Assembly (NCBI GenBank): GCA_937896885.1
Contig: CALBNX010000014.1
Coordinates: 5,061 to 69,060, forward strand
Direction: 5' to 3'
Origin: an uncultured Clostridia bacterium
GTDB taxonomy: Bacteria > Bacillota > Clostridia > Oscillospirales > Acutalibacteraceae
Length of the DNA: 64,000 bases
The notes below the pieces were generated by a model. The model had not been told where the DNA came from, made no database searches, and saw only the letters and a program-made list of their open reading frames with translations. A program made the position numbers and the translations under genes. Below are positions 1,575 through 54,859 of this stretch, in pieces (positions within the stretch are counted from its first letter, which is position 1; the number at the start of each line of letters is the position of its first letter).

Positions 1575-1601
1575 TGTCACAAAACATTGAATATTTACGA
1601 T
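1575..1601 (+). promoter_or_regulatory. ECF-sigma-type promoter motif, copy 1 (TGTCAC-N17-CGAT)
   Basis: TGTCAC at 1575-1580, exactly 17 nt, then CGAT at 1598-1601 followed by TTATAT. The same motif and spacing recur at 7 other sites. Confidence 0.55.
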
Positions 1602-1607
1602 TTATAT

Positions 1608-1787
1608 TATTGAGGATGAACGATATAATCGTAAGATAGAACATTAATATGTGATAAACTGTTTTTTATTTTGATAAGATAATAAATACAAAAATAACAG
1701 TATACTTCCCATCTCAACCCATCTATCTGTATCATCCCACACCTCACCCCCCAGCCGATGGTTCACCCCATCGGCTTAACTTTTTTT
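1608..1787 (+). ncRNA. Candidate small RNA, copy 1 (CU-rich, terminator-ended)
   Basis: Lies between promoter motif copy 1 and the terminator AGCCGATGG..CCATCGGCT (1753-1776) plus T-run 1781-1787. No ORF of 60 aa or more. Contains the pyrimidine tract CTTCCCATCTCAACCCATCTATCTGTATCATCCCACACCTCACCCC. A paralogous copy lies at 23587-23758. Confidence 0.45.
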
Positions 1788-1917
1788 GTCGAAATTCTGA
1801 ATAATTATGTATTTTATATTGACTATTGTTTACCATTTTATAAAACTAAAACATGCATTATTACTCTACTCGAAGACAAATGAAATTACAATATTCAAAT
1901 TGAAAGAAGGACTTTTT

Positions 1918-2532
1918 ATGGAATTAAAACACTACACCAATATGTTCGTTATAACTTTTGTGTTGTTTTTTATTATTTCACTAATAATTGATTTGAAAAA
2001 AACATATACACATGAAAACATATCGTCAAAATTGATGACGCGAGAGAATGGAGAACAATATATTCTTGTGATGACATTTTCTTGGCAATTCAATAAACAA
2101 AAAAGGATTAGAGAATTGTTTAAGCAAAATAGCGTTTATACGAAGAATGATTTCAATTATGTTATAACTAGTTGCCTTAAAGACCAAAAGACAAGTTTGT
2201 TTACTCGTGATTTCGAATTTGGAGTTAAACCTATTGGGCAATCAAAATCCACAGATATAAAATATTTTATATATATTACAGGTAGGGATAATCTTACTGT
2301 TAATTTGAAAAACGCAATCAACTATAATGAGGTATATTCAGAAATATACAGAAGCAACATTGATAACAACGATAAAGAGTTATTACTTAAATATTTTAAC
2401 AGTCTTTCAAACGATGTTGCTTTCGACAAAGAAAATACCAACGCATTCCTTGAACTTCTTAGAAAATATGAGCCAGTATTTTCCTTTGCAGGCAGTATAA
2501 TTAGTATTATATCAGCTCTCCTTTCAATATAA
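1918..2532 (+). CDS. Hypothetical membrane-anchored protein
   Basis: An internal ATG at 1918 with RBS AAGAAGGA is preferred over the 1807 start. N-terminal TM helix FVITFVLFFIISLIIDL and a C-terminal hydrophobic tail. Confidence 0.5.
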   Translation: MELKHYTNMFVITFVLFFIISLIIDLKKTYTHENISSKLMTRENGEQYILVMTFSWQFNKQKRIRELFKQNSVYTKNDFNYVITSCLKDQKTSLFTRDFEFGVKPIGQSKSTDIKYFIYITGRDNLTVNLKNAINYNEVYSEIYRSNIDNNDKELLLKYFNSLSNDVAFDKENTNAFLELLRKYEPVFSFAGSIISIISALLSI

Positions 2533-2586
2533 TTATTAAAATCGAACTAAAAAGCATAACACTAATTAAAACTAATATTCTATACA

Positions 2587-2622
2587 AAACCGATGGTAAT
2601 TTACTATCGGTTTTATTTTTTT
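2587..2622 (+). terminator. Rho-independent terminator
   Basis: Stem AAACCGATGGTAA / TTACTATCGGTTT followed by TATTTTTTT. Confidence 0.7.
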
Positions 2623-2653
2623 GTCGCTTTTTTCTACTTTTTTGCATTTTATC

Positions 2654-2678
2654 TTACAATTGACTCTTAAAATTGTAA
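2654..2678 (+). promoter_or_regulatory. 9-7-9 palindromic site A (TTACAATTG-ACTCTTA-AAATTGTAA)
   Basis: Imperfect inverted arms around a 7 nt spacer. Belongs to a family of four sites (A-D). Lies 50 nt upstream of the 2728 start. Confidence 0.6.
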
Positions 2679-5657: not shown

Positions 5658-5684
5658 TGTCACAAAAAGTCAAATTATTTCGAT
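5658..5684 (+). promoter_or_regulatory. ECF-sigma-type promoter motif, copy 2
   Basis: TGTCAC 5658-5663, 17 nt, CGAT 5681-5684, then TTATATAT. Points into site B and ORF 5846. Confidence 0.55.
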
Positions 5685-5791
5685 TTATATATAAAAGGGA
5701 TACTTATAAGTATATGTATTCAAAATTCTTTCAAATGGAAATAGTAACCTTGTTTCTATTTGAAAAAGTTTTGAAAAATAAAACAAACAAC

Positions 5792-5816
5792 TTACAATAA
5801 CCTCTTATTATTGTAA
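5792..5816 (+). promoter_or_regulatory. 9-7-9 site B (TTACAATAA-CCTCTTA-TTATTGTAA)
   Basis: Perfect 9 bp inverted arms with an asymmetric 7 bp spacer. The reverse complement of site C is identical at 24 of 25 positions, including the whole spacer. Confidence 0.65.
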
Positions 5817-5845
5817 ATAATATTAAATCGTGTGGGAGATAACTT

Positions 5846-6844
5846 ATGACAGAAAGTTTAAAGTACGCCTTTTCTATAAAGCGAGTAAAAAAGACTAACG
5901 ATATTGATTATATAAATGCAATTAAGATATACAATGAAAATATTCCTTTTGATATTAGAACAGATTCTAATGAAATCACATCTTGGTTAAATGAAGATTT
6001 AAACAAATCTCCGTTTGTACCATATTGTTTTATACTTTATTTTAATAATGAAGTAGTTGGCTTTGCTATGGAAACGTATATAAAGCGAACTAAAATTATG
6101 GTTGGAGAATATATAACTTTACAAAACGAATTTCATTCAGAAACTGTTTTATTTACATTTTTAGATTTAATGCATAATTATTATCGAATAAATAATATCG
6201 ATATTTCTTATTTTGTTGATGAAATAAGTAATAAAAATTCAGGTAATAGTGTCGATAAAGAAAGTAAACTTTTTAAAAAAATGCTATGTGTTCAAGGCTT
6301 TGGAGAAATTGATGCACCATATACAACATTGCCTTTGGGCTTAAATAATTTTGAAAGTTCCTTTGATGCAAAGATTTTTATTAAATCTAATGATGAACTT
6401 AAACTTATTTCAAAAGAAACATATCTTTCTATTGTTGAATCTATTTACTATGATTACTTTATTGTTTGGTATAAGGATATGTTTACTGAGAGAGAAAAAA
6501 CAAAATACAAACAGAAAGTTGATTGTTTTTTCAAAAGCATATCAGACGATTTAATTAAAGAATCTGAATTAGAGATAAAATTTGTCGATTGTCCTGTTTT
6601 AAAGGAAAGTCAAGATTCATACAAGACAATAAACATCCCAAATCGCAAACAATCAAACATATTAAAATGGCTTTTTATAATATTAGTATTGATTGTACTT
6701 CCACCTATAATAGCTTTAATTTATACAAGCATATTAAACTTTCTACATATTGAAACAAATACAGTTAGTTCTTTATTAGGAGAAAGTTTAAGTGGTTTAT
6801 TAACTTTTATTTCAGCATATGTAATATATAAAAAGGCTCTATAA
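5846..6844 (+). CDS. Hypothetical protein with a C-terminal membrane anchor (possible GNAT-like N-terminal fold)
   Basis: RBS GGGAGA. C-terminal TM segments WLFIILVLIVLPPIIALIYTSIL and LSGLLTFISAYVIY. The N-terminal segment YCFILYFNNEVVGFAMETYI is only weakly acetyltransferase-like. Confidence 0.5.
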   Translation: MTESLKYAFSIKRVKKTNDIDYINAIKIYNENIPFDIRTDSNEITSWLNEDLNKSPFVPYCFILYFNNEVVGFAMETYIKRTKIMVGEYITLQNEFHSETVLFTFLDLMHNYYRINNIDISYFVDEISNKNSGNSVDKESKLFKKMLCVQGFGEIDAPYTTLPLGLNNFESSFDAKIFIKSNDELKLISKETYLSIVESIYYDYFIVWYKDMFTEREKTKYKQKVDCFFKSISDDLIKESELEIKFVDCPVLKESQDSYKTINIPNRKQSNILKWLFIILVLIVLPPIIALIYTSILNFLHIETNTVSSLLGESLSGLLTFISAYVIYKKAL

Positions 6845-11451: not shown

Positions 11452-11478
11452 TGTCACAAAATGATACATATTTTCGAT
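11452..11478 (+). promoter_or_regulatory. ECF-sigma-type promoter motif, copy 3
   Basis: TGTCAC 11452-11457, 17 nt, CGAT 11475-11478, then TAATAT. Upstream of the giant gene. Confidence 0.55.
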
Positions 11479-11646
11479 TAATATAGTATACCAAAATTAG
11501 ATGGAGAGGTGTTTTATTTGTTGGTAAATAAATATTTTGTTTCAAAAAAATAGAAATGGCATGGTGTCTGTTTTGTCATGAAATTACGGTAGATTTTAAT
11601 TTTGCCATACCCGTTGATTGTACAAAAATTAATATCTACTAGTGAT

Positions 11647-14600
11647 ATGAAAAGAGGGATTATTGTGAAAAAGGTCAGGATTTTTTTCAAATCAGCAATT
11701 TCAATTGTTTTAGCACTTGTAATTCTACTGGCATTAGAAAGCCCTATAATGTCAGCAATTGCTTCAGGCATTGAAAGTTTAGCACAACCTGAAGTTTCGA
11801 TTTCTGCCGAAGAAATTACACAAGCTTTGAACAACGCTGAAATTGTTGATATGAGCAAAGACAGTCAGTTTGTTTTGGCTGATGATTCAGTAGAAATTTC
11901 AGATGATTATTTTCCTAAAACTGCTGATATTAATTGTGTTGAATACCCACAGATAACAAACAATTATGAAGTATCTCCCATATCAGAAGGATTGGAAGGA
12001 GATGTTATGGTTTGTTTAACACAAAAATGGTTAAATCAAGAATATGGTGATGTAGAAGGTTTTATCAAAGTTACGGAAAATGGTGAAACAGGGTGGAATA
12101 CCATTTATGCCCTTATACGAGCCTTACAATATGAGCTTGGAATAACAAGCTTAACTAATAATTTTGGACCTACAACAAGTAAACTATATTCACAAAATAT
12201 TTTACGAAGACAAGATGGTGTAACAGATAACAAATATGCTATTTTGCAAGGTGCGTTGTGGTGCAAAGGATATTGTCCGGGATATAACATATCCATGGAT
12301 AGTGATGGAGTTGTAACATTTAACGCTGTTTTTGATGAAGGTGTTGAGAACGCAATTAAACAGTTACAAGCAGATGCGGGTTTACTTGAACAAGATGGTG
12401 TTGTATCATTAAATATTATGAAGGCTCTTATGTCAATGGATAGCTTCAAATTGTTACCAGCATCATACGGCAGTGATAATAAAATTCGTAATTTTCAACA
12501 GTGGCTCAATCGTAATTATGAAGAATATACAGGATTGAATCCATGCGACGGTGTATATGGTCGAAACACAAATAAAGCTCTTGTTTATGCTTTGCAAGCA
12601 GAAGAAGGATTGCCTGTCGGTGTTGCTACTGGTAATTTCGGAAATACAACAAAACTTTGTTGTCCTACAATTCCATATGATAGAAACAATGAAAATGCTG
12701 CACGAAAATATTCTGGTGAGACAGATAGTGATTTGTACACATACAAAGAGATTCAAGATTTTACCAAGCTTATGCAGTTTGCTCTATATGTTAACGGCTT
12801 TGGCGATGGTGATTTCGATGGCGTATATGACAATGCCACTAAACAAGCTATCAGGGGATTCCAAGAACACCATGCAATTGTTGTTAACGGAACGGCTAAT
12901 ACTGGTACGTGGCTATCTTTATTTATTAGCTGTGGAGATAAATATCGTGATGCAATAGCTGCAGACTGTGCAACAATTTTAACTGAAGCAAAAGCCCAAG
13001 CTTTAGTTGAAAATGGATATGAATATATAGGTAGATATTTAACCGGTACATATGGTGGTGGCATTAATAAAGCACTTTCACGTGAAGAAGCCGAAATAAT
13101 TCTTGAAGCTGGTTTGAAAATTTTCCCTATATATCAAGATGGCGGAACAACACAAAGTGATTTCACTGCAGAAAATGGAATACTTGACGGTAAAGCTGCC
13201 GTCAATGCCGCTAAAGCACTTGGATTGCCTGATGGCACAATTATTTATTTTGCTGTTGATTTTGATGCTATGGATTACCAAATCAAATCAAATATTATTC
13301 CATATTTTAAGGAAGTATATGCTGAGGTGACAAGTGCAAGTGCATACCAGGTAGGCGTTTATGGTGCAAGAAATGTTTGCTCACGTGTTTCTAATGCAGG
13401 ATATGCTTGCAGTAGTTTTGTAGGAAATATGTCAACAGGCTTTAGCGGTAACCTTGGTTTTAAAATGCCGTCCAATTGGGCCTTTGACCAGTTTGGTAAT
13501 ATGGATAAAAATGGAAATTATCTGATAATTTCTAGTGCTGATGGTAATTTTGAAATTGATAAAGACGGTGCTTCTGGTAGAGATGATGGTGTATCTTGGT
13601 TAAAAGATGTTGAACCTACAGATTATTGGGACACGGATGGTATTGATTCTGGTAATACAGACAGTGACACTCTTTATGGACCTACAGTTAACATTTTTGG
13701 TAATGCTGTGCCCCTATTCCAATTTGATATATCTTTTGAAACAAAGATTGCTCAAATAGAAACATGGTATGACCACGAAGAAAAAGCTACAAAAGTATTA
13801 ATTGGGTTACGATTAGCAGGTGTGGAAACTGAAATTGGTGGAACACGCGAAAAAATCAATAAATGCAATGAAGCTTATGAACAGGTAAAAAAAACCTTAT
13901 ATAAAATAGGTCAACCAAATACAACATACACATCTATAAAAGATAATTTCAAGGGAAGCCTATATGATAAAGGAGTCAAAGTCGGGTTCGATTTTAACGG
14001 ATATTTTTTGGGATACGCAAAAATAAATAATGATGGCAAGGTAGTCGAGGGAATGCTAGGATTAATGGCAACCGCAAAAGCCAGCATCTCATATCCTATT
14101 GTTCCAACACTTTATCTCAAGTTCCAAATTGAAGGCAGTTTGCAAGGTAAACTTCAACTTATCATAAATGATTCTGGGGCTTTGGGTACTCATGGAGAGT
14201 TTGTCTTTTCAATTAAACCAAGTGTAGGAATTGAGGGTAATCTTTATGTTGCACGAGCGTATGTTGGGTTAAGTGGTGAATTAGAATGTTTAACCCGCAT
14301 ACCATTTAGAACTCTACAAGAATCATTTGAAGCAGAGTATACAGGTAGTTTTTTCTTTGAATGGAATGCATTGTTCTGGAATGGTCGGTATGATTGGGAT
14401 TTTTTAAACGTGAAACTATATCCACAATCAGAAGAGTCCGTTTCAGTTGATGTGTATGACAATTTAAGTTTCATTGAACCACTATCCCAAGCAAGTGTGC
14501 TATCCAATACGACTAACCCAGACGTATTCAAATCTAGCGTTCAAGTTTACGCAGCCCCTAAAATAGTTGACTTTGGCAATGGTCAGTTGTTTATGACATA

Positions 14601-16905: not shown

Positions 16906-16952
16906 ATTTAATTAAGATTAATAAATTTATAATATTTAATGAGGTGAAATAA

Positions 16953-17471
16953 ATGGCTAAAGAAAGATTAGATGAAAAAGTAACCGTTAGAGGAATAATT
17001 TTTCTTATTCTCACAATTCTAGGATTATTTGGATTGTTTGTATTAATGAATAACATTGGTGATGATAAAACTCCTGCCACTTATGAACAAGTATGGAATA
17101 CTCTAACCGAATATGAGTGTACAGCTCTTGATTATACAAAGCATTTTAGTGAAAAGTATCCTGAGTTGGATTTTGAATATGCAATCTCTTGTAGAGATGA
17201 TGACATTTATGTTGACTTTTTCCAATTTAGCAATGTTGAAGATGCAAATATTGCATATAGCAAATTTAATTCTGTTATAAACAAGAATTTTTCAAGAGAT
17301 GCGGTGGAAACTGGCGGAGATATGAGAAACTTCACTATTAGAACTTACTTGTACGAAGGTGAGTACTTTTATCTTATGAGAGTGGATAATACTGTTTTCT
17401 TTAGTAGATGTCTAGAACCAAATAAAAGTTTAGTCAACGATATAGCGTCTAGTTTGGGATACTATCTTTAA
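16953..17471 (+). CDS. Hypothetical membrane-anchored protein
   Basis: RBS GAGGTGAAA. Single N-terminal TM helix GIIFLILTILGLFGLFVLM. Confidence 0.5.
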   Translation: MAKERLDEKVTVRGIIFLILTILGLFGLFVLMNNIGDDKTPATYEQVWNTLTEYECTALDYTKHFSEKYPELDFEYAISCRDDDIYVDFFQFSNVEDANIAYSKFNSVINKNFSRDAVETGGDMRNFTIRTYLYEGEYFYLMRVDNTVFFSRCLEPNKSLVNDIASSLGYYL

Positions 17472-17483
17472 GGAGCGATAATT

Positions 17484-17891
17484 ATGAATTATATGCAACA
17501 AACTTTGCTTACTGTAATTTACTTTATTTTTCTTTTACCGATTACTTATTTAAGTTTTCGTTGGGTTTGGGAATTACTTTGTAAAGCTGGAGGAACAACT
17601 CCAGAAGAAGTAAAACAGAAAAAAAGAGAATTATTTAATAGAACAGTAAATCCACAAATTCAATTTAGAGTATGGTTAGAGCAAAAAGCTACAGATGTTA
17701 TGAAATTTCGTAGAATATATAACATATACTCTATATGTACAACAACGAATATTATCTTTTTAGCTTTTGCTTTTAGTGGATTTGTAACCCCTGCACTTAA
17801 CAAATTAGTTAAGTTGGGAATGGTCATTGTTCCTACTTTAATCATTTGTAGCTTAATTGCAAAAATGATATATAAACATAAGTCTAAATAA
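17484..17891 (+). CDS. Hypothetical membrane protein
   Basis: RBS AGGAG. TM helices at both ends (LLTVIYFIFLLPITYL; IIFLAFAFSGFV; MVIVPTLIICSLIA). Confidence 0.5.
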   Translation: MNYMQQTLLTVIYFIFLLPITYLSFRWVWELLCKAGGTTPEEVKQKKRELFNRTVNPQIQFRVWLEQKATDVMKFRRIYNIYSICTTTNIIFLAFAFSGFVTPALNKLVKLGMVIVPTLIICSLIAKMIYKHKSK

Positions 17892-17923: not shown

Positions 17924-17956
17924 GAGCCATCTACCAAGTTGTAGATGGCTCTTTTT
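17924..17956 (+). terminator. Rho-independent terminator (short version of the 11332 hairpin)
   Basis: Stem GAGCCATCTAC / GTAGATGGCTC, loop CAAGTT, then TTTTT. Confidence 0.7.
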
Positions 17957-21052: not shown

Positions 21053-21079
21053 TGTCACAAAAGCACTTATAGTTTCGAT
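21053..21079 (+). promoter_or_regulatory. ECF-sigma-type promoter motif, copy 4
   Basis: TGTCAC 21053-21058, 17 nt, CGAT 21076-21079, then ATATAAT. Upstream of the three-gene plus-strand insert. Confidence 0.55.
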
Positions 21080-21182
21080 ATATAATTATATAGTCGGTAT
21101 TCAAATAAGAATTATAAACGACTAATATTTTTTAATTGTAGAAAAAAGAATGAATAAAATTATTACAACATAGGTGATTTTT

Positions 21183-21662
21183 ATGATGAATAAGTATAGT
21201 TGGAAAAAGTCATTGTTTAAAAATATTTTTCTTTTATTTTTATTGGTTGGTATAATCATATTAATAGTAGTAATAAGTTATTTGTGGGGAGAACTTATAA
21301 AATCGAATGAATTATTTTGTAGTTTGGTGGGTACTTTTTTAGGTATATTTGTTGCATTAATGTTTGATAGATTAATTGAAAATTTCAAATCAATAAAAAC
21401 ATTAAAGAATTGGCTAATATTATTAGATAAAGAACTTACACCTATTTTACAAATACAGCCTAATTCGAGCATTCAGTTTAATTGTTTACAAAATCTAATT
21501 AATTCACCAGATTTCACATTATTCATGAAAAACGAGGAGCTTTTATTAAGTTTATATAATCTTAATAATAACTTGGAAAAATTCGAAAATGGTCAAAATG
21601 ATAGTAATATAATTAATGCAATAAAAAAAGACATAAAGGTAGTAATTAATTTCATAAAATAA
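21183..21662 (+). CDS. Hypothetical membrane protein (2 TM)
   Basis: RBS AGGTGA then ATG at 21183. TM helices IFLLFLLVGIIILIVVISYLW and LVGTFLGIFVALMF. Confidence 0.5.
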   Translation: MMNKYSWKKSLFKNIFLLFLLVGIIILIVVISYLWGELIKSNELFCSLVGTFLGIFVALMFDRLIENFKSIKTLKNWLILLDKELTPILQIQPNSSIQFNCLQNLINSPDFTLFMKNEELLLSLYNLNNNLEKFENGQNDSNIINAIKKDIKVVINFIK

Positions 21663-21676
21663 AGAGGTGCTTTAAT

Positions 21677-22222
21677 ATGTGCTTAGAACAGAAAAACAAA
21701 AAATTTGATTCGTGCTCACCAAATACTTCACAAGAAGAAAAAACTTATGAAGAAAAGTTAAAAAATAATTATTTACAGAAACTTTTTTTATATACATGGA
21801 ACTCAACTTACAGAACGGTTGAAGAATCATATCTCAAATACAATGGTCAAAAAGTATATATTAATTTTGATGATGAGAATACAGATAATTTTAGTTATGT
21901 TGGAACTTGTGAAATTGAAGATCATGCAATCTTCATTAATGTAAAATCAAAAGAAGATAATGACCAATGTTTAGTGATACTAATGAATGATAAAAATTTT
22001 GATCATGAGTATGACACAATATATTTTAATGTTGGAATGATGCTTTCATATGGTCGTAGAAGTCAATTCCCTGAAAGCAAAACGGTTTTTGCTTGCCAAA
22101 AAAAACTAAACATAAATAGCAACTCAATTTTTAACAGACTAATAAAAGACCAACTTAAAAAATATCAAATTGAACCTAATTTTTTAAAAGAAATTAGTAA
22201 GAAAATAGATAAGGTGGGTTGA
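21677..22222 (+). CDS. Hypothetical soluble protein
   Basis: RBS AAGAGGTG. No recognised motif. Ends in TGA, which shows TGA is a stop codon in this genome. Confidence 0.45.
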   Translation: MCLEQKNKKFDSCSPNTSQEEKTYEEKLKNNYLQKLFLYTWNSTYRTVEESYLKYNGQKVYINFDDENTDNFSYVGTCEIEDHAIFINVKSKEDNDQCLVILMNDKNFDHEYDTIYFNVGMMLSYGRRSQFPESKTVFACQKKLNINSNSIFNRLIKDQLKKYQIEPNFLKEISKKIDKVG

Positions 22223-22229
22223 TGGAAAT

Positions 22230-23553: not shown

Positions 23554-23580
23554 TGTAACAAAATATTGATAGTATGCGAT
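23554..23580 (+). promoter_or_regulatory. ECF-sigma-type promoter motif, copy 5 (TGTAAC variant)
   Basis: TGTAAC 23554-23559, 17 nt, CGAT 23577-23580. Occupies the same position relative to sRNA copy 2 as motif 1 does to copy 1. Confidence 0.5.
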
Positions 23581-23758: not shown

Positions 23759-23819
23759 ATGTAATAAGCACTTATTTAATGAAAAAATTATAATAGTTTA
23801 ATTACAAGATGAATTTTTG

Positions 23820-45267: not shown

Positions 45268-48200
45268 ATGGCAAGCAAAGAAATGAAGATTCATATTGAT
45301 TTACTAAAACGCAGAGGCAACTTTTTTACCAATATAGGCTTATTAATTTCAATAAATAATGGAGATGACTATTATAATATAATAAAAAAGTATTTTACAG
45401 ATTCTAATCCAATTAATAGAAAATCTTTTTTTCACAATAATTATAATGATGTATTAGAATATACCCCTACTGGACAAACCGCTAACTTATTAAAAATGTT
45501 ATTATGGAGTAGTACTATTATATCTTTCTATAAAGAAGAAATTGTAAATTTTGTTTCCATAAAGAAAAAATTTGATTATTATGTTTTAACCGGAGATTAT
45601 GAAAACGCATTAAAAGAATTGGATTACATAGAAAACAATATAAGCTTTTCTATGTGGTCACTCAAAAATAGAATAATGCTTGCTAACTTAAGAGGCGACA
45701 GAGTTGATGAATATATTAATTCCTTGAATTTAAATAAATATGCAACATCACATGCTAACTTATATGCTCATTTTACAAAAGTTGAGTGTAATGTTAATGA
45801 ATATATTAAAAATATAGAACATATTACTAATACTTTGCCAAAAGATTATGTAAATTGTTTTTTATATCTATATGGTGATGTTGATGATATAGAAATTGAA
45901 AACTATTCTAATGTTTTAGCATATTGTAATGCTTATTCAATTATTGATAGCTATCTTTGCATTAAAAGAATTCTACATAGTTATTTATCAACAGAAGAGT
46001 TTGAAAACAAGCTAATACAAAAAAGCATAGATATCTTATCATGCATAGAGAACGATGATGAACTATTACTTTTTATATCACACAACATCCCTAAAGATAT
46101 GAATATGTCTTCTTCCTGTGAAAGATTATTTGCTGATTTTAGTCATAAGAATTATGAAAAAATCTTTATAAATCGAAATAACTATTTACTAGATATCTCA
46201 GCATGTAGTCTCATAAAAATTATTATTATCACGATATCTGGTATTCTTTCTAATAAAATTGATAATAATTTTTCAGAAAAAAGCATTTTGGATTCCATTA
46301 TTCTTTCTTTATACAGAGTTTTAAAGTCTGATAACCTATATGATTTTCGTATTGGATTGTCAAAAATGGAAAGTTATAATAGAGTATTACGTTGGTTTGA
46401 TATATCAAATCCCTTAGGTCTCTTTTGGAAGAATTGTTTAAGTTATATAGAGGAGAATCCGATAGAAAAATGCTTTTCTATCGATGATAAAATACTTTAT
46501 AATAAGATTGTAGATTTACAAGTTCCGCCAATCTTTTTCGAATCGCTTTATCATTATACAAAAATGGATTTTGATTATTCTGATATTAAAAAAGATTTTA
46601 CTGATAATGAGAATAATATCTTTATAATATCATTGCTTTACATACAATATTATGTCGCGCTAGGCAAAAAGGACTACTATTTTGCTACTGATATTTTCTC
46701 AAAGGCTATTGCTAATTTTACTCCATTAATATATAGATTTAGAGTTGATGAAGTTTGTAAACATGTTATAAATAATATTACTATAAAAGAATCAGTAACA
46801 ATAAGTGATGTTATTTTTTCCTTCAATGTGAATGATTTAAAACCATACAAACTTATAGCTTATAAGAATTTTTTGGATGAAAACAACATTGTAAAGCCTT
46901 TAGAGATTATTAATTTGCCTATAGATAAGCAGCTTAAAATATATTTTCTTAAAGAAATTTGCACGATTGACACAATGACATGTCTCTATGTTACATTTCC
47001 TAATAGTAATGAGATTGAAAACCATAGAATAGAAATCTGCAAATTCTTACTTGAGAATGATCCTTCAAATAAAGGCTCATATGGTAAAGAAATATCAGAA
47101 ATATTAAAAGAACAAGAAGTAAGAAAATTAAACAAAACTATTGATAAGTCTAAATTAAGTATAGATTACCAATATATTTTAGATAAAACATATGAACAAT
47201 TCTTAGATTTAACTAAAATGTATTATGATACTAGACCAGATGCAATAGAGTATGTTTCTTTTTCGTCACCAATGATTATCAGCACTGAACCACAAAGTTG
47301 GCGTTTTATTGCTTTGTCTCGCGATATTGTACTCGAAAATATGTATAAAGTATATGCCGCAGAGTTCTGTTTTGGAAGCAGGGGCCTTGATACATACCTT
47401 AGTACACGAGTACGACATGGAACTTTTGAAAACACAATAAAGAAAGTGTTTATAGAAAATAATCTATATAACACTGAAAACAATTTTTTTAAATCTATGT
47501 TTTCAAAAGAGCATGTTTCACAAAAAATTACGGAGGTTATAAAAGACTTTAGAGAACAATTACTTAATAGGATTCATGTTTTGACAAACACAACATTTAA
47601 AGTATTTATTGAAAATGAGATAAAAGGAGCTCTTTTCGATTATTATATGGATACAAAAGATGTAGCAATAATATACAAACAATTGAATTTAAAAGAATCA
47701 TTTTCAGTTCTTGATTTTATAAACATTATTTCGGATACAATAGTAATAAAAACAAACGAATATCTTGCGTTTATTAGAGACGCTGTTTTAGAAAATCTTA
47801 AAAGCGAGATTATTGACTTGTTAGATAATTTAAATGCCGATGTAGAAATCTACTGCTTGGAAGCTTCAGCACTTTCTAATATTAGAAATAACATATCTAG
47901 AAGCAAAACAAACATTCAAAACAAAATAGATGATATAAAAAATTGGTTTTACCTATCCGAATCAATTCCTATGGAAAACTATACAATTGACAAATTGATT
48001 GATGTGTTAAACAAGAATTTATGTCAGCAGTTTGATGATTTTAATTTAATTGATTTAAAAACTAACAACTCTATTTCAAAAGATTTTGTAGGTGAATCTT
48101 TCGTTTATCTTTACGATATACTGCACATTCTTTTGTCAAATGCAATTATTCATTCAAAATTTGAAAATTTAAATGAATTGAAAATTATTTTGGAGACAAC

Positions 48201-48486
48201 AGAAATTAGTGATGAATATGTTTCATTCTGTATAAAAAATAATTATTCTGAAGCATGTAGTCGTGAGCAAGTGGAAGAATCAATTAGAAAAATTAATAAT
48301 ATTTATGTAAATAGAGAATACACAAAAGTAGATACCCACAAAGAAGGCGGAATGGGCCAAATAAAAGTTTTAGATATTTTATATAATATTTTAAATGTCG
48401 GGAATACTTTTGAGGCAGTATGTGATTCTGATAATTATGAAATAAAGTTTACTATTTCAAAAAAAGGAGTAATTGCCTGTGATTAA
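45268..48486 (+). CDS. dtcA: Detocs DtcA-like sensor: large helical-repeat N-terminal region plus a histidine-kinase-type GHKL ATPase
   Basis: RBS AAGGAAGGA. 1072 aa with no TM helix or signal peptide. The N-terminal ~650 aa are Tyr/Leu/Asn-rich and helical-repeat-like. Candidate phospho-His in LSTRVRHGTFEN (His codon 47416-47418). N-box ILLSNAIIHS and G-box HKEGGMGQIKV at the C-terminus. Confidence 0.7.
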   Translation: MASKEMKIHIDLLKRRGNFFTNIGLLISINNGDDYYNIIKKYFTDSNPINRKSFFHNNYNDVLEYTPTGQTANLLKMLLWSSTIISFYKEEIVNFVSIKKKFDYYVLTGDYENALKELDYIENNISFSMWSLKNRIMLANLRGDRVDEYINSLNLNKYATSHANLYAHFTKVECNVNEYIKNIEHITNTLPKDYVNCFLYLYGDVDDIEIENYSNVLAYCNAYSIIDSYLCIKRILHSYLSTEEFENKLIQKSIDILSCIENDDELLLFISHNIPKDMNMSSSCERLFADFSHKNYEKIFINRNNYLLDISACSLIKIIIITISGILSNKIDNNFSEKSILDSIILSLYRVLKSDNLYDFRIGLSKMESYNRVLRWFDISNPLGLFWKNCLSYIEENPIEKCFSIDDKILYNKIVDLQVPPIFFESLYHYTKMDFDYSDIKKDFTDNENNIFIISLLYIQYYVALGKKDYYFATDIFSKAIANFTPLIYRFRVDEVCKHVINNITIKESVTISDVIFSFNVNDLKPYKLIAYKNFLDENNIVKPLEIINLPIDKQLKIYFLKEICTIDTMTCLYVTFPNSNEIENHRIEICKFLLENDPSNKGSYGKEISEILKEQEVRKLNKTIDKSKLSIDYQYILDKTYEQFLDLTKMYYDTRPDAIEYVSFSSPMIISTEPQSWRFIALSRDIVLENMYKVYAAEFCFGSRGLDTYLSTRVRHGTFENTIKKVFIENNLYNTENNFFKSMFSKEHVSQKITEVIKDFREQLLNRIHVLTNTTFKVFIENEIKGALFDYYMDTKDVAIIYKQLNLKESFSVLDFINIISDTIVIKTNEYLAFIRDAVLENLKSEIIDLLDNLNADVEIYCLEASALSNIRNNISRSKTNIQNKIDDIKNWFYLSESIPMENYTIDKLIDVLNKNLCQQFDDFNLIDLKTNNSISKDFVGESFVYLYDILHILLSNAIIHSKFENLNELKIILETTEISDEYVSFCIKNNYSEACSREQVEESIRKINNIYVNREYTKVDTHKEGGMGQIKVLDILYNILNVGNTFEAVCDSDNYEIKFTISKKGVIACD

Positions 48487-48922
48487 TAAGATTTTAGTTG
48501 TAGAAGATGATGCATTAAAAGGTCGTCAAATAGTTAATTTCACAAAATCAATTAACAACAATATAATAATCACTCAAAAAGGTGCATTAAATTCTGGACT
48601 TATAGAGTTAACTAAAAATGAATATGATTTGGTTATTCTCGATATGAGTTTACCGACTTTTGACAACAATGAATCAGAACATTTCCAGCCTTATGGTGGA
48701 TTGTTGTTTTTAGATGAGGTGAAAAGAAAGAAATATAAAGTACCGGTTGTGATAGTGACTCAATATGCCTCTTTTGGAGAAGGAGAAGGCGAAACAACGC
48801 TTGAAGAAATTGATTTAAATTGTAAAAACAAATATCCAAATTTCAAAGAAATAATCTACTATTTAGATGATGATTGGCAAGAGAAGTTAAAGACATACAT
48901 TGTAGGTGAAAATGATGATTAG
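48473..48922 (+). CDS. dtcB: Detocs DtcB-like stand-alone receiver (REC) protein
   Basis: Overlaps the dtcA end. The likely start is GTG 48479, 9 nt after AAGGAG. REC motifs ILVVEDD, DLVILDMSLP and PVVIVTQ. No output domain. Confidence 0.75.
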   Translation: MPVINKILVVEDDALKGRQIVNFTKSINNNIIITQKGALNSGLIELTKNEYDLVILDMSLPTFDNNESEHFQPYGGLLFLDEVKRKKYKVPVVIVTQYASFGEGEGETTLEEIDLNCKNKYPNFKEIIYYLDDDWQEKLKTYIVGENDD

Positions 48923-50117
48923 AATTCTTTTTATTGATGATAATATTGAACGAACACAGGAAATTGCTAGTTGGTTAGATGAGTATCAAATAGAAAATGA
49001 TAGCGAATTCGCTGTAACAAAAGATGATGCATTAAGAAAACTAAGCTGTAACCAGTACGACTTGGTAATCGTTGATATTGTTCTACCCGAAAGTATGAAA
49101 ACACTAGGATTTTCAAAATCTGCAGGTTTGGATATTGTTAAAGAGATATGTTTTAGCAGAACCGTTATCCGTCCATTGTTTTTATTGGGTATAACTTCAA
49201 ATCAAGAAAGCTATGATGCTGTAAAAAACGAGTTTGACAGCAGTTTCATACCATTATCTATTTGGGAAATAGGTGATGATAATTGGAAAACAAAATTAAT
49301 TGCGAAAATTAAATATCTTTCAAAATTAACGAATGAGTATAAGCCTATTAATAAAAATAAAGTAGATGTAGCAATTATTACAGCTGTCGATGATGAGTAT
49401 CATGCACTTGACGCTTTGCCAGTATGTTGGAGAGATGTAATAATACCATGTGACCCTCTTATATATTCAAGAGGCATATTAACCAGTGGAAAGATTATTT
49501 TGAGAGTAAAACTGCCAGAAATGGGAATGAGTGCTGCTTCACATGTTACAACTAGAATTATAGAGTTGTTTGAACCTAAATCAGTCATAATGACTGGAAT
49601 TTGTGGTGGAAATAAAGGCGAAGTAGATTTGGGGGATGTTGTTGTAGCAGAGAGAACATGGGACTATGGTTCAGGGAAGATAAAAAAAGGAGAAGATGGG
49701 AAAATAACTTTTTCTGCCTTGCCAAACCAAATTGGTATTGATACGATATTGCGAAGTGATATTGAACGAAATTCAAAAATAATAAGCAAGATATGTGACG
49801 AATGGAATACGACGAAAAATGATGATAAAAGTTCTTCGATAAAAATAGGTGCTATAACAACAGGTTCTGCTGTTGTGGCAAATAGAGATATTATCGATGC
49901 AATTATTGAACCTCAATACAGAAAGGTATTGGGTATAGATATGGAAACATATGGCGTGTATTTTGCATGCGAAAAGACAGGGAGAAACATAAAATTTGTT
50001 TCAATTAAGGCAGTTTCTGATTTGGCTGATGTAGAAAAAGACGATTCGTATCACAATTTTTGTTCATATGTAAGTGCAAAATTTGCTTTTAAATTAGTTG
50101 AACTGGATATTTTATAA
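48906..50117 (+). CDS. dtcC: Detocs DtcC-like effector: receiver domain fused to a PNP_UDP_1 (nucleoside phosphorylase / MTA-nucleosidase-like) domain
   Basis: Overlaps the dtcB end. REC motifs ILFIDDN, DLVIVDIVLP and LGITSN. Phosphorylase-fold motifs VDVAIITAVDDEYHAL, MTGICGG, GDVVVAE, GIDMETYGV and IKAVSDLAD. Confidence 0.8.
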   Translation: MKMMIRILFIDDNIERTQEIASWLDEYQIENDSEFAVTKDDALRKLSCNQYDLVIVDIVLPESMKTLGFSKSAGLDIVKEICFSRTVIRPLFLLGITSNQESYDAVKNEFDSSFIPLSIWEIGDDNWKTKLIAKIKYLSKLTNEYKPINKNKVDVAIITAVDDEYHALDALPVCWRDVIIPCDPLIYSRGILTSGKIILRVKLPEMGMSAASHVTTRIIELFEPKSVIMTGICGGNKGEVDLGDVVVAERTWDYGSGKIKKGEDGKITFSALPNQIGIDTILRSDIERNSKIISKICDEWNTTKNDDKSSSIKIGAITTGSAVVANRDIIDAIIEPQYRKVLGIDMETYGVYFACEKTGRNIKFVSIKAVSDLADVEKDDSYHNFCSYVSAKFAFKLVELDIL

Positions 50118-50375: not shown

Positions 50376-51347
50376 TTAAAAGAAAATCATATGATTATCT
50401 TTTAATTGTTGCAATATAGACTCAATATCATCTCTTACTTTTCTTTCATATATAGATGTATTATTATCTATTTGTTTAAAGTTCAAATTATATAGTTGCT
50501 CTTTGTAATCTTCATTCAAGTCAAAATATCTATGTAGTACACAACTCTTAGCATTAAACATATCATCAATATGTGTGTTACCATCATCCACGCGATATAA
50601 CACAAATACATCAGTTATAGCTTTAACCTTCATACCATGGTTTACCGCAGAGTTAAACTCACTCACAGCATTAATCAATTGTGTTCCCTTTGATGTATTA
50701 CAATCAATTAGTACAGCACATCCTTTGCGGTGTTCAAAGAGTTCCCAAGAACCTTCTATATTCACCTTATAGCATTCTTTAGTAGAACTATCTATTGTTG
50801 TTGCTCTAGAATCATCGTTCTTATCTTTTACCACAACAAGTTTTGCACCGTATTTCATAGCCACAGATTGAGCTAATTCCACGTTACCACCTTTAGGTAC
50901 AACAATTACAGCAGGATTTGTTTTTCTTGTTTTATTTATTAAAGTAACCATTAATTCTGTCATTTCATTTAAATCGTCAGAATCTGTTGAAGCCTCCATT
51001 GTATCCACATAATATCTACTATTAATATCTTTGCTGTAATTAATATTAGTTGGGAAAGCCATTGTATATCGAGCGAGAAGTAATATTAATCTTTCAAAAG
51101 AATTCTCTGCCTTTTTCATTTTTGACCGTTTGGCTATATTTTTCATTGATTTGTTAATTTCTTTTGCCGTTTTATCAGTAAAACCCCAATCAAATAAAAC
51201 CTTCTCTATTAAATTTTCATCATGATTGCCGTAAATAAACTTTGAATACCATTTATTGTTTCTAGGAACATTTGCAAATGCTGCTATTATATCTCTTATT
51301 GAAAATATTCCTAAAACAACAAGAATTACCCATTCTGACCAATTCAT
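50376..51347 (-). CDS. Membrane-anchored phosphoribosyltransferase-fold (PRTase-like) protein
   Basis: N-terminal TM helix WSEWVILVVLGIFSI. Type I PRTase-like core AVIVVPKGGNVELAQSVAMKYGAKLVVV and a degenerate PRPP loop AVLIDCNTSKGTQL. Confidence 0.6.
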   Translation of the reverse strand: MNWSEWVILVVLGIFSIRDIIAAFANVPRNNKWYSKFIYGNHDENLIEKVLFDWGFTDKTAKEINKSMKNIAKRSKMKKAENSFERLILLLARYTMAFPTNINYSKDINSRYYVDTMEASTDSDDLNEMTELMVTLINKTRKTNPAVIVVPKGGNVELAQSVAMKYGAKLVVVKDKNDDSRATTIDSSTKECYKVNIEGSWELFEHRKGCAVLIDCNTSKGTQLINAVSEFNSAVNHGMKVKAITDVFVLYRVDDGNTHIDDMFNAKSCVLHRYFDLNEDYKEQLYNLNFKQIDNNTSIYERKVRDDIESILQQLKDNHMIFF

Positions 51348-51351
51348 ACAT

Positions 51352-52095
51352 TTATCCTTTCACATCGTTTTGCTTTAACAAATATTCCAACAAGTATTCA
51401 TCTGAATCAAACGAGTAACAACCGTTTTGTTTTATATAATCAGTTATTTCTTTAACTTTAGTATCTTCAACGTATTTCCACACCGAATCATTACACCAAT
51501 TTACAACTCTATCAACACATGTATATTTATTATCTATAAATTTTTTATAAAATTCATCTTCAGGATTGATGTATAAACCTCCTGTTAAAAAAAGTTTTAC
51601 AAAACTAGTATCATTGATTATCTCGCAGTATTCGTTCATACTAATAAACGGTAAAATAGGCTTCAGTACTACAGCTGTTTTTACTCCTGTGTCTTTCAAA
51701 TTTTTCAACAAATCAATTCTATATTTATAATCAGCAGTACCTGGTTCGATTTCATTTATACAACTTTTAGTTGTGAATCCGACACCTAATTTTACGAAAC
51801 CATTTCTAATTTTCGAGTTTAATTTTAATATATCATTTATTGAAGAATCCGCAATTTTGCCCTTACACGAAAAACTAAAAATTATTTTTTTGCTATCATT
51901 ATATTTTTTTAAGATTTTTTCACAAAAAGTCCAATCAATTTCAAAATCCGAATCACAAGTTGGATAAAAAGCAAGCACATCATCATCAAAAAATTCTTCA
52001 TTAATTTTCGGATATTTATAATTATCCCATTTTGAAAAACAATACATACAATTTTTCTCACATTTTTTATTAGAATGAATAAAAACTCGTTTCAT
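51352..52095 (-). CDS. Small radical SAM enzyme
   Basis: CX3CX2C cluster at the N-terminus (KKCEKNCMYCFSKW). 247 aa. Lies 4 nt upstream of the PRTase-like gene, so the two are probably co-transcribed. Confidence 0.65.
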   Translation of the reverse strand: MKRVFIHSNKKCEKNCMYCFSKWDNYKYPKINEEFFDDDVLAFYPTCDSDFEIDWTFCEKILKKYNDSKKIIFSFSCKGKIADSSINDILKLNSKIRNGFVKLGVGFTTKSCINEIEPGTADYKYRIDLLKNLKDTGVKTAVVLKPILPFISMNEYCEIINDTSFVKLFLTGGLYINPEDEFYKKFIDNKYTCVDRVVNWCNDSVWKYVEDTKVKEITDYIKQNGCYSFDSDEYLLEYLLKQNDVKG

Positions 52096-52311
52096 AATAA
52101 TCTCCAGTCAAAAATATTTATTTGCAGTTCAAAAAATAAAATACAAATGCGCCACATTAGCGTATCATATATGATATGGTTGTTTTAATAGTATTTTTAT
52201 CTTTCGATCACTTTTTTTATTATATTTTGTTTTTTATTATTATAGTATTTTTTAGTCAAATATTTTTAGTTAATAAAACTATTTTATACAAGTCAAGTGT
52301 CTAAATTTATA

Positions 52312-52338
52312 ATCGGAATGAAGTCATATTTTGTGACA
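52312..52338 (-). promoter_or_regulatory. ECF-sigma-type promoter motif, copy 7 (minus strand)
   Basis: The plus strand reads ATCG(52312-52315)-N17-GTGACA(52333-52338). The reverse complement is TGTCACAAAATATGACTTCATTCCGATTATAAAT. It points at the radical SAM gene. Confidence 0.5.
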
Positions 52339-52815
52339 TTTTTTTGTATTTTACTAAAGTATATTCAATAACAAATATATGCTAATACTGATTTATGTGT
52401 TATAACACAAGTATTAGATATGAAACATTACCATACGATGAAACAATAACATTAGAACATCTTACACAATTTTTCCATTTTTAAAAGCCGAATATAAAAA
52501 ATTATAGGAATTGTTTCTATTTATGAGGATGTTGAAAAATGGTTACGATAAAAAGAATTCTTTAGAATTCGAATTAAACTTATTGAAATATATATGGAAA
52601 CTGACGCCTTATCATCTGTACCCGACTTTTTCTTTATACGTTTCTGTGTGTTCGCATAAAAGGGATTAAACATCTGAAATGATTGTGTATATGATAATGG
52701 GTATCGTTCGAAATACGAACCAAAATATGCTTTTAAAAATTACATTGCTGAGCTTGTCAATGATTGAAACTAGTTATCCACATACTATCAGAACTTATTT
52801 GATTAATTCTAGCGA

Positions 52816-52871
52816 TTAGACCGCTTATGGACCACTTGAGGTGAAAACTCGATGGAAATATTAGAATTATT
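52816..52871 (+). repeat. 56 bp direct repeat, copy 1
   Basis: TTAGACCGCTTATGGACCACTTGAGGTGAAAACTCGATGGAAATATTAGAATTATT has 3 mismatches against 54907-54962. Contains an SD (GAGGTGA) plus ATG. Confidence 0.8.
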
Positions 52872-52957
52872 AAAATGGTATGAACTTAAACCCTGTCTTT
52901 TTAATGGAATAGTGGACACTACATAGAAAACATATTACTCAAATGTTCTTTTTTATA

Positions 52958-54580
52958 TTATTCCTGAACTTTAACCTGAAACTTTTTAGTATAGACATTT
53001 GGAGAATGCTTCGAACGAATCTCATATCTAATATATTGTGGTACAGATTCAAAGAATAAGTATGCAGGGAAATGCATCGAGGTGTGTTGTTTTAAATAAG
53101 GCACATTAAAACACAAAATATCTTCTTTGTCTGTATCACGAATTCCATAACAGAAGACATCATTAAGTGAATCACAATATTTTTGTTTGCACTCTTCAAG
53201 TTCGTCTTCTCTACTTTTAAAAGGAAGGTTAATAAGACCAGGTATGTATGGTTGAACAGGATAATTTGAATATGCTTCCACGTCAGCAGTAGAATGTCCT
53301 GCGAATAAATATTCTACTGCATCTGCGTCTACGATTTCCTCTATGAAATGTATCCCTGGGATAGGTAAATTTTCTATGTTTACTAAATGACCCTTATCAA
53401 TAAAAATTTTTACATCAATATCTTCGTCAAATGTAGTACCCATATTGCTGATAACAAGCGATGTATTATACAAAGAGGATAGTTTAAGAAAATACTCCTC
53501 AGCATCGTTGTAATCCTCGACCTTTTTTATAAGTTCTTTTAAGTGATTATGCTTTTCTTTTTCGCTATCTGAACCTATGTATTCAGTCGTTGTTGTATTC
53601 ATGATATTAAATACTGGAGTTGAGGTTTCAAAATGTAGATTTCCCAAACTCCAAAACTCATTTGAAAGCGTTATTCCTTTTTTTGCACAAAAAGTTTCAA
53701 CTAACTCAATGTACCCTGAGTACAATTCAACTTTTTTGCATACGGGTGGTTCCTGCCCCAACATCGTATGATAATCTGCTTTACTAATTGAACCATTGGC
53801 TAATCCTTTCATTATTTCCCCTACGGTCATATGTTCCTTTTGCTCATCAGTAAGTTTGGGAGTGTTTATTTCTTCCGGTGTTTCTGAAGGAACTATATCA
53901 AAACCATTAATAACTGTTATCAAGTCTCGTATAGCATTTTCTTTGTTTACAAGAACCTTGATATTTTTATATCTATCATTACTTAAAAAGATAGTGTCAG
54001 ATTTATCACATTCTGCTGTGATTAATAGGTTTGGTATGAAGGTAGGTGATACTTCAGAAATGGTAGATGATACTGTCTTGAGAAAATACATAGTAATTGC
54101 ATTTTGAAATTCTTTTCGCAGCTGTTCATCGCTTTTTATAACAGAGTATATGCCTTTATCAGCATACTTGTCTTTGAAACTCTTAACTTTTGCTAATTGC
54201 TCCAGATCAATCGTGCTATGATCTACTTGCCTTTCTATAAAATACAGAAAAACTTGTTTGCCTTGAGAAAGCATAATTTCGATTTCTTCTTCAGTGCCAG
54301 AATCGTAATGATCGGTCGGGGTGCCAAATCTTGTTCCGAGCAAAGCAACACACAAATCACAATTATTAACAAACTGTTCATTGAGTAATTTTTGAGGTTT
54401 TCCGCCAGATTGTGGAAAACTATCCGTCGACCAATGTTTAAGGTCAACACGAATATTGTTTATTGTTCCAAGAGTGTTGTTAAATATTGTGGTACACTCT
54501 TCTATAACTCCTTTCAAGTCAAGCACATCGCCTGGGCATGACAGTAATAAATCATAAACTGTAACATTTGGACGTGGCAT
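52958..54580 (-). CDS. DUF4062-like (TIR / nucleoside-deoxyribosyltransferase-like Rossmannoid) N-terminal domain protein with an uncharacterised ~380 aa C-terminal region
   Basis: The N-terminal pattern VYDLLLSCPGD...SFPQSGGKPQKLLNEQFVNNCDLCVALLGTRFGT....SGTEEEIEIMLSQGKQVFLYF matches the DUF4062 consensus (S...FP.S...P......I..CD..I.I.G.RYG....S.TE.E...A...GKP.L.F). Confidence 0.55.
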   Translation of the reverse strand: MPRPNVTVYDLLLSCPGDVLDLKGVIEECTTIFNNTLGTINNIRVDLKHWSTDSFPQSGGKPQKLLNEQFVNNCDLCVALLGTRFGTPTDHYDSGTEEEIEIMLSQGKQVFLYFIERQVDHSTIDLEQLAKVKSFKDKYADKGIYSVIKSDEQLRKEFQNAITMYFLKTVSSTISEVSPTFIPNLLITAECDKSDTIFLSNDRYKNIKVLVNKENAIRDLITVINGFDIVPSETPEEINTPKLTDEQKEHMTVGEIMKGLANGSISKADYHTMLGQEPPVCKKVELYSGYIELVETFCAKKGITLSNEFWSLGNLHFETSTPVFNIMNTTTTEYIGSDSEKEKHNHLKELIKKVEDYNDAEEYFLKLSSLYNTSLVISNMGTTFDEDIDVKIFIDKGHLVNIENLPIPGIHFIEEIVDADAVEYLFAGHSTADVEAYSNYPVQPYIPGLINLPFKSREDELEECKQKYCDSLNDVFCYGIRDTDKEDILCFNVPYLKQHTSMHFPAYLFFESVPQYIRYEIRSKHSPNVYTKKFQVKVQE

Positions 54581-54832
54581 ATATTATCTCCTTTATTATT
54601 AATCTTATATAAAACTATGTCGTCTATTTGTAGGTTGAGCTTTTCACAAACACGCAGAATAATGTCACTTTCAACTGATTTGTTCTGCGTTATATTTAGC
54701 TTTTATCAAAACATTCTCTACACATATAGCCATTTTTTGGAGAACGACAATTATTTTGACAATTACTGTTTATTAATATTTTGTTATATTTTCTAAAGTA
54801 TATTTCATATAAAACATACCTATTTAATATAA

Positions 54833-54859
54833 ATCGTTTTTTGAAATAGAAATGTGACA
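54833..54859 (-). promoter_or_regulatory. ECF-sigma-type promoter motif, copy 8 (minus strand)
   Basis: The plus strand reads ATCG(54833-54836)-N17-GTGACA(54854-54859). The reverse complement is TGTCACATTTCTATTTCAAAAAACGATTTATATT. It points at the 540 aa gene. Confidence 0.5.

Follow-up and report, generated by a model that had tools for sequence, protein, structure and literature searches.

What reads a bipartite DNA motif that stands, with invariant geometry, ahead of eight accessory units in the genome of an uncultured Clostridia bacterium? The question arises from a stretch of 64,000 nucleotides (nt) of GenBank assembly GCA_937896885.1 (contig CALBNX010000014.1, positions 5,061 to 69,060; this whole stretch is hereafter the window), in which the hexamer TGTCAC, or in one copy TGTAAC, is followed after exactly 17 nt by CGAT. 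An earlier note on this DNA had proposed that the copies are promoters of the extracytoplasmic function (ECF) class serving dispersed accessory units. Our analysis supports this central claim through the occurrence of the motif before ECF sigma genes in other Clostridia, its co-variation with those genes, and its likeness to the promoter signature of the ECF41 group. We put the probability at about three in four that the eight sites are promoters at which an alternative sigma factor of the ECF type (group 4) directs the transcription of mobile accessory cassettes, the host being a Candidatus Fimenecus-like bacterium.

The motif is far from random. TGTCAC-N17-CGAT has seven exact matches in the window, against a mean of 0.07 in dinucleotide shuffles, and none of 100 shuffles reached seven. 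A scan that allows one mismatch adds the TGTAAC copy at 23554, which completes the eight copies of the earlier note, together with a match at 63819-63845 (CGGT) that lies in the argC coding sequence and is chance-like. When the spacer of GTMAC-Nx-CGAT was varied from 14 to 20 nt, N17 gave eight matches and every other length gave none or one, so the 17-nt spacer does hold for every copy. Chance or low complexity is ruled out by the shuffles and the exclusive N17 spacing. A position weight matrix built from the eight sites found nothing scoring 8-33 bits elsewhere in the window, and the eight sites therefore stand without weaker copies. The -35 consensus is TGTCAC, with CAC in place of AAC in all window copies except TGTAAC; the CG of the -10 box is invariant and its third base is A (CGAT) at all sites. 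AAAA follows the -35 hexamer in seven of the eight sites, where six had been counted before, and only the copy at 54859 differs (ATTT). The extended consensus reads tttTGTCACAAAA(T/A)G - AT-rich - CGATTTATAT, and a logo from 44 non-redundant sites, gathered with the N17 pattern from the window and other genomes, reads tttTGTCACAAAA(T/A)G - AT-rich - tt(t/a)CGATTTATAT, that is, two boxes separated by a variable spacer.

The placement of the sites is promoter-like. All eight are intergenic on the open reading frame (ORF) map and co-oriented with the next unit, as had been claimed. The accompanying claim that they lie just after a terminator is clear for the copies at 1575, 5658, 11452, and 23820 but less so for the others. 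No copy lies to the right of the two tRNA genes at 55327-55501, which form the border between the accessory DNA and core genes (nanA, arg genes), and the reported absence of the motif from the core region is thus borne out. Just upstream of these tRNA genes is a perfect sigma-A promoter, TTGACA-17-TATAAT (55559-55531, minus strand), which indicates that the host housekeeping sigma is ordinary in its specificity and that the motif must belong elsewhere; true consensus sigma-A promoters are also present elsewhere in the window and in related loci.

Several other identities for the motif were tried and rejected. As a sigma-A promoter its best alignment is TTGTCA-N16-nnCGAT, in which the -11 position is A, T, T, T, G, A, C, and A across the sites and is not conserved, whereas TTGACA-N17-TATAAT promoters have a conserved A there and a conserved T at -7. 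Nor do the boxes match what is known of promoters for the sporulation factors SigE/K/F/G, for SigH, or for SigD; there is no CATA or GAAT -10 box, and SigD shares only CGAT. A dispersed repeat or the end of a mobile element was likewise dismissed, as the flanks of the eight sites are unrelated save for two small RNA (sRNA) copies.

The motif recurs in other genomes of the same kind. We scanned the 18-base pattern TGTCACAAAA-N13-CGATTTAT in one genome per species across 185,579 species and obtained 81 stretches, about 41 of which lie in Clostridia metagenome-assembled genomes (MAGs) of less than 40% GC from gut or rumen. Twelve Ca. Fimenecus MAGs account for 21 of the low-GC loci, and the others come from gut or rumen "Clostridia bacterium" MAGs; the remaining stretches are mostly GC-rich chance hits, about 17 of them representing one conserved Bradyrhizobium-like coding locus. 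By blastn, the window is 85-97% identical to several Ca. Fimenecus loci, core gene included, which assigns it to a Fimenecus-like organism. Where the sequence downstream of a low-GC site is readable, nearly all sites are AT-rich, intergenic, and 30-150 nt ahead of a ribosome-binding site and start codon. The same loci hold nine further relaxed sites, whereas shuffled loci give about 0.9 for seeds and extras together. Strict matches number only one to three per genome and are limited to some of the Fimenecus species; from these low numbers the regulon appears small and largely confined to the flexible genome. In these genomes (retrieved loci are numbered L056, L086, and so on) the genes that recur behind the motif encode a stand-alone LytTR regulator (166-170 aa), a small membrane protein, the HsdM subunit of type I restriction-modification (R-M) systems, and NgoFVII-like endonuclease, NERD nuclease, AAA_15 ATPase, MBL-fold, and SNF2 proteins. 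The 105-aa membrane protein gene of the window has a homologue in L106, again behind that locus's strict-pattern site.

Other sequence collections were scanned as well. Among viral contigs a 15-base pattern had 85 matches, mostly coding and chance-like, so the motif is not a phage feature. We note that one IMG/VR contig of 14.2 kb (L056) has a plausible motif copy, TGTCACAAAATGAAATTTATTTTCGATTTGT, 242 nt from both of its ends in inverted orientation; this may reflect either inverted terminal repeats or an assembly artefact. The metagenome scan was dominated by one Bradyrhizobium-like coding locus, a chance match, and added a third family of sigma genes to those described next.

The ECF reading rests chiefly on the position of the exact 18-base motif in higher-GC Clostridia MAGs or contigs, where it stands 22-35 nt ahead of three ECF sigma genes that are unrelated to one another. 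The first encodes a 160-aa sigma (L105, L122, L162, L201; "Ruminiclostridium sp.", Clostridia MAGs, and one metagenome contig), the second a 170-aa sigma that is 29% identical to the first (L121), and the third a 184-aa sigma (L209, L215). All three families pass the TIGR02937 sigma70-ECF cut-off, and none of the motif-bearing sigmas reaches a named equivalog cut-off, those of SigX, SigW, SigM, and SigV included. Each of these sigma genes is followed by a gene for a single-pass membrane protein in the anti-sigma position, one of them with a PASTA domain. A motif in this position is the hallmark of autoregulation, and the sequence data support that interpretation here. In members of the 160-aa (L122) family at 47-59% identity, the same position is occupied by TGCAAC-N17-CGTA or TGTGAC-N17-CGTG; promoter and sigma thus vary together, which is what autoregulation of ECFs would lead one to expect.

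The closest published signature is that of ECF41, and the B. subtilis SigX type comes next. The target promoter signature of ECF41, defined by experiment, is TGTCACA-N16-CGTC, and TGTCACA is its accepted -35 box (Wecke et al. 2012, PMC3426412). The -35 heptamer of our motif is identical to it, the spacing is the same (TGTCAC-N17 equals TGTCACA-N16), the -10 box starts with CG, and the motif-bearing sigma of L215 scores notably against the SigJ and SigX4 models, which are of the ECF41 type, over the sigma domain. The window sites, however, have CGAT followed by TTATAT at -10 and never CGTC; the motif-bearing sigmas, at 160-184 aa, contain sigma domains only, lack the C-terminal SnoaL-like extension that defines ECF41 and are followed by a membrane anti-sigma-like gene; and ECF41 has essentially one neighboring COE target, whereas here eight targets are dispersed in 55 kb and dozens are found across genomes. 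Membership in ECF41 was accordingly rejected on the -10 box, on the sigma architecture with its anti-sigma-like neighbors, and on the target set.

With the SigX, SigM, SigW, and SigV promoters of B. subtilis (TGnAAC-N16-17-CGnn; TGTAAC-N17-CGAC for the SigX type), the motif shares the bipartite form, the 17-nt spacer, a -10 box that starts with CG, and an A/T-rich tract behind the -35 box. Tandem sigma-A promoters and control by a membrane anti-sigma are further likenesses, the latter through the sigma operons of other Clostridia. The motif differs in having CAC for AAC in the -35 box (only the copy at 23554 is TGTAAC) and CGAT at -10, and its targets are mobile cargo instead of cell-envelope homeostasis genes. 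The comparison with the B. subtilis types in the earlier note therefore holds as to the ECF class, although ECF41 is closer than SigW, SigM, or SigV.

These observations suggest how the sites may work. An ECF sigma encoded outside the window would bind the extended -35 element TGTCACAAAA through its region 4 and the -10 CGAT exactly 17 nt downstream through its region 2, and transcription would start in the TTATAT or purine-rich stretch a few bases past the -10 box. By analogy with the motif-bearing sigma operons, a single-pass membrane anti-sigma with a PASTA- or DUF4367-type extracellular domain probably restrains the sigma until a cell-envelope signal releases it. Release would turn on dispersed accessory units or lift them above their sigma-A basal level: in the window, two sRNA copies, the cargo operons carried by a conjugative element, the gene for a large dockerin protein of the cell surface, and defence-like genes, and in sister genomes stand-alone LytTR regulators, type I R-M systems, and nuclease- or ATPase-type (NERD, AAA_15) genes. 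One stress-responsive sigma would thus probably switch on much of the organism's accessory genome. Transcription from the motif is inferred, as are the inducing signal and, for this lineage, which sigma is the cognate one and where it is encoded. DdvS/DdvA of Myxococcus xanthus, which controls a CBASS-CRISPR defence island (PMC11506125), is a precedent in which anti-phage defence genes are turned on by an ECF sigma that a transmembrane anti-sigma restrains, and a link between SigX of B. subtilis and a phage tolerance response has been reported (bioRxiv 2021.02.16.428622). The Myxococcus system differs in that sigma and anti-sigma lie at the island and serve one locus, whereas here, in a Firmicute, no sigma lies close by and copies of the promoter are spread over many independent cassettes and mobile elements.

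A number of results weigh against this interpretation. In agreement with the earlier note, neither a Pfam search of about 50 ORFs nor two ECF hidden Markov models run against all six-frame ORFs detected a sigma gene in the window, and our searches likewise did not yield the cognate sigma of the Fimenecus lineage. None of the approximately 41 low-GC strict matches precedes a sigma gene, where some would be expected if the lineage sigma were autoregulated through a consensus site; that sigma may therefore be non-autoregulated via the consensus, or it may be borne by an element in unsampled parts of the genome. The -10 box is CGAT instead of the usual CGT of ECF promoters, and the -35 box has CAC instead of AAC. 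R-M genes are unexpected targets of an inducible sigma, a difficulty that is mitigated by tandem sigma-A promoters: at the hsdM loci (L086, L088, L101, L114, L125) the TGTCAC-type promoter is followed first by a conserved hairpin (ATAGGGTATTT...CTCCCTAT) and then by a canonical TTGACA / TGnTAAAAT sigma-A promoter, and such tandem ECF-type and sigma-A promoters are typical of ECF-regulated Bacillus genes. Finally, most of the homologues were fetched with the pattern itself, so that conservation of the boxes among them is partly forced. The comparisons free of this bias are the three sRNA copies described below, a homologue of site 11452 found by blastn (L163), in which both boxes are kept while 7 of the 13 spacer positions that the pattern leaves free have changed, and the promoters of the divergent membrane-protein genes, which are kept in L092, L135, L138, and L145 and degraded in L149 and L163.

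Which sigma, then, could be the cognate one? In two loci of 34-36% GC (L142, L197), an ECF sigma/anti-sigma operon lies directly upstream of the motif-bearing gene. The L142-type family, consisting of the sigma, a DUF4367 anti-sigma, and a 134-aa protein, is chromosomal and occurs on contigs of 32-37% GC; its sigma is 29% identical (E = 3e-24) to the autoregulated sigma of L215. The sigma fragment of L197 gave one match when used as a query. The L142-type and L197-type operons are the only candidates for encoding the cognate factor of the window lineage, and the L142 type carries a further count against the proposed scheme, as its operon at nine loci has sigma-A-type promoters and no motif nearby. 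We also observed that the sigma gene in L142 itself (reverse-complement 1482-2067) is interrupted in a T7 homopolymer by a frameshift of 1 nt, while its 92 homologues are intact at about 181 aa; the frameshift may be either an assembly error or the mark of a phase-variable or pseudogenised sigma.

The promoters could be of this same kind and yet be read by a sigma carried on mobile elements such as those of the Tn916, Tn1549, and Tn5397 families, in which case they would form a private code of the mobilome, constitutive with the element, and not a host envelope-stress regulon. The sites do concentrate on mobile and accessory DNA, several of them lying in or beside a conjugative element, while the 9 kb of core sequence has none, and the low number of strict matches per genome in only some Fimenecus species would suit such a sigma as well. 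In C. difficile, moreover, the promoter consensus is unknown for three ECFs and for eight transposon-associated sigma factors (PMC7438776), and large serine-recombinase elements insert directly upstream or downstream of the L142-type sigma operon (L217, L218, L220, compared with L219 and L222). We nevertheless consider an element-borne sigma unlikely. The conjugative element and islands of the window carry no sigma gene, in contrast to the Clostridial conjugative transposons; about 278 kb of low-GC DNA flanking motif sites yielded only one, that of L142; and the motif-bearing sigmas elsewhere adjoin membrane anti-sigma-like genes, which is the classical signal-responsive arrangement. As a separate observation, L140 has a duplicated tRNA 3' end beside a tyrosine integrase and a motif-bearing gene, and this tRNA site and the flanks of the sigma operon look like integration hot spots.

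The most frequent target raises the possibility that the boxes are not a promoter for an alternative sigma but operator half-sites at which a DNA-binding regulator, the stand-alone LytTR protein being one candidate, activates or represses weak sigma-A promoters. In L092, L135, L138, L145, L149, L163, L185, and L193, the LytTR gene is divergently paired with a gene for a membrane protein of about 100 aa, a homologue of that at 23878-24195 in the window, and the pair resembles LytTR regulatory systems made up of a regulator and a membrane inhibitor. In the first four of these loci TGTCAC-N17-CGAT stands before each of the two genes, so that the -35 boxes face one another as an inverted repeat with about 20 nt between them. 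A sigma-70 consensus scan also offers TTGTCA-16-TACGAT at 1575, a weak 9/12 match. Several features make an operator of this kind very unlikely all the same. LytTR sites consist of two direct repeats of about 9 bp, spaced about 12 bp apart and lying upstream of a weak -35 box; TGTCACAAAA and CGATTTATAT do not repeat one another in this way, and most of our sites have a single TGTCAC box. The -11 equivalent is not conserved, as shown above, and neither is any hexamer at a distance of 17 nt before the TATAT run. The window is devoid of LytTR genes, and elsewhere the motif fronts ECF sigma genes in genomes without an adjacent LytTR gene. A search of a plasmid collection with the LytTR protein gave no match.

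If the sites are ECF-type promoters, as we prefer, two of them would drive non-coding transcripts. Promoter copy 1 (1575-1601, plus strand; -35 TGTCAC at 1575-1580, -10 CGAT at 1598-1601, then TTATAT; exact match) follows a terminator at 1519-1546 and precedes a predicted non-coding transcript of about 180 nt (1608-1790, plus strand) whose 3' half is C-rich and which ends in an intrinsic terminator (1753-1778) and a T-run; its fold z-score is -4.2. Promoter copy 5 (23554-23580, plus strand; the one-mismatch TGTAAC variant) precedes a second predicted copy (23587-23765, plus strand; terminator 23727-23752). The similarity between the two units, which are 82% identical, starts exactly at the -35 box and stops at the intrinsic terminator, which supports indirectly a transcription start shortly past the -10 box. 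A third copy lies at about 5322-5528 of L102 and is 92% identical to the first; over the three copies the identity is 82-92%, and their -35 boxes read TGTCAC, TGTAAC (23554), and TATCAC (L102), with N17-CGAT kept in all. The C-rich half runs CCCATCT...CCCACACCTCACCCC, and a seven-codon ORF (MNDIIVR / MSDIFVR) follows a GAGG. Rfam gave nothing for these units or for the leaders, either at the gathering score or at E <= 1.

Promoter copy 2 (5658-5684, plus strand; exact match) has a conserved structured leader. Its unit (5692-6844, plus strand) consists of this leader and a 332-aa ORF at 5846-6844 without a Pfam or PADLOC match. The leader, 5692-5845, comprises a 25-bp hairpin at about 5719-5775, an A-rich stretch, and a second hairpin at about 5792-5816 (ACTTACAATAA...TTATTGTAA); it is also found in L102, L128, L090, L158, L137, L189, and L212, and it could be a riboregulator or a cassette junction. 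Homologous promoter sites in L102, L128, L090, L158, L144, and L137 all lie behind the same terminator hairpin. The module of terminator, promoter, and leader fronts different genes, namely that of the 332-aa protein in the window and in L144 and that of a 748-aa protein in L090, which is what one would see if the motif were an att-like recombination site or cassette boundary and not a promoter. We give this explanation hardly any credence: the geometry is strictly bipartite with a variable spacer, the motif has a fixed orientation toward the gene at a promoter-like distance from the ribosome-binding site, it occurs before chromosomal sigma operons, and no recombinase is consistently adjacent.

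The remaining promoter copies face protein-coding units. Copy 3 (11452-11478, plus strand; exact match) precedes a unit at 11602-17891 (plus strand) that encodes a 1767-aa secreted protein with PG_binding_1, Rv2525c-like GH, CARDB, and dockerin domains, followed by small membrane-protein genes at 16953-17471 and 17484-17891 and a terminator at 17924-17951. Copy 4 (21053-21079, plus strand; exact match, with -10 CGATAT) precedes a three-gene operon (21174-23276, plus strand) for proteins of 162 aa, 181 aa, and 348 aa, the last being ATP-grasp or D-Ala-D-Ala-ligase-like; this operon sits inserted within the conjugative element. Copy 6 (23820-23846, plus strand; exact match) precedes the gene for the 105-aa membrane protein (23878-24195, plus strand). 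On the minus strand, copy 7 (52312-52338; exact match) faces a unit at 50376-52095 for two proteins, one of 247 aa that contains CX3CX2C and one of 323 aa that is PRTase-like; Pfam gave no match for either, and the 247-aa protein is radical-SAM-like by eye only. Copy 8 (54833-54859, minus strand; exact match, with ATTT replacing AAAA after the -35 box) faces the gene for a 540-aa DUF4062 protein (52958-54580, minus strand) that matches the PADLOC candidate defence model PDC-S60.

The surroundings of these units are those of a mobile region. A Firmicute-type conjugative element occupies 24-45 kb on the minus strand and encodes a relaxase, a VirB4-like ATPase, TrbL_5, DUF3852, a SpaA adhesin, SpoVG, and a D12 methylase; a coupling protein and a DUF3991/Toprim gene lie at 18.2-21.0 kb. 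At 45268-50117, three genes match PADLOC PDC-M60 A, B, and C, a candidate defence system, and encode a 1072-aa protein, a receiver-domain protein, and a receiver joined to a PNP_UDP phosphorylase effector. This system has no copy of the motif. Of the eight units only the DUF4062 gene matches a PADLOC candidate defence model, and the mention of defence cassettes in the earlier note fits only a part of the targets. The same note had regarded the cassettes as being of different origin, a view that our results do not support: the motif-bearing segments share a very low GC content, extended promoter flanks, and recurrence at 85-97% identity in Ca. Fimenecus MAGs, and from sequence comparison they look like one lineage-specific gene pool. 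At the left edge (86-1446), the C-terminal fragment of an RHS or polymorphic-toxin-like protein (YD-repeat end, "RYYSAEIGRFINTD") comes before a membrane protein, possibly its immunity partner; Pfam gave no match here.

A bolder version of the ECF interpretation, possible in our view but doubtful, is that a single ECF sigma, not encoded beside its targets, acts as a master switch of the flexible genome in an uncultured genus of gut Clostridia and commands conjugative-element cargo, sRNAs, LytTR regulators, R-M systems, and candidate anti-phage systems. Cassettes would then be exchanged behind a portable module of terminator, promoter, and leader, the promoter would serve as a lineage-specific "plug" of the mobilome and as a possible determinant of host range, and perturbation of the envelope, whether by phage adsorption or by conjugative contact, would be the common trigger.

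If functional, the sites reveal the sequence that an alternative sigma recognizes in Ca. Fimenecus and related uncultured gut and rumen Clostridia, together with much of its regulon; for these organisms no promoter information appears to exist. They provide a highly specific and testable regulon motif for these bacteria. The 18-base pattern is nearly noise-free and can be used to find cassettes in metagenomes, and the motif can help to predict transcription units and small RNAs and to pick candidate sigma/anti-sigma pairs. The finding also bears on an open question in C. difficile, namely which promoters the Clostridial ECF and transposon-associated sigmas read. Mobile cargo and defence-like cassettes would, if the sites are functional, not be simply constitutive but wired to one signal-responsive sigma, an arrangement for which the only precedents so far are DdvS/DdvA of Myxococcus and, indirectly, SigX of Bacillus.

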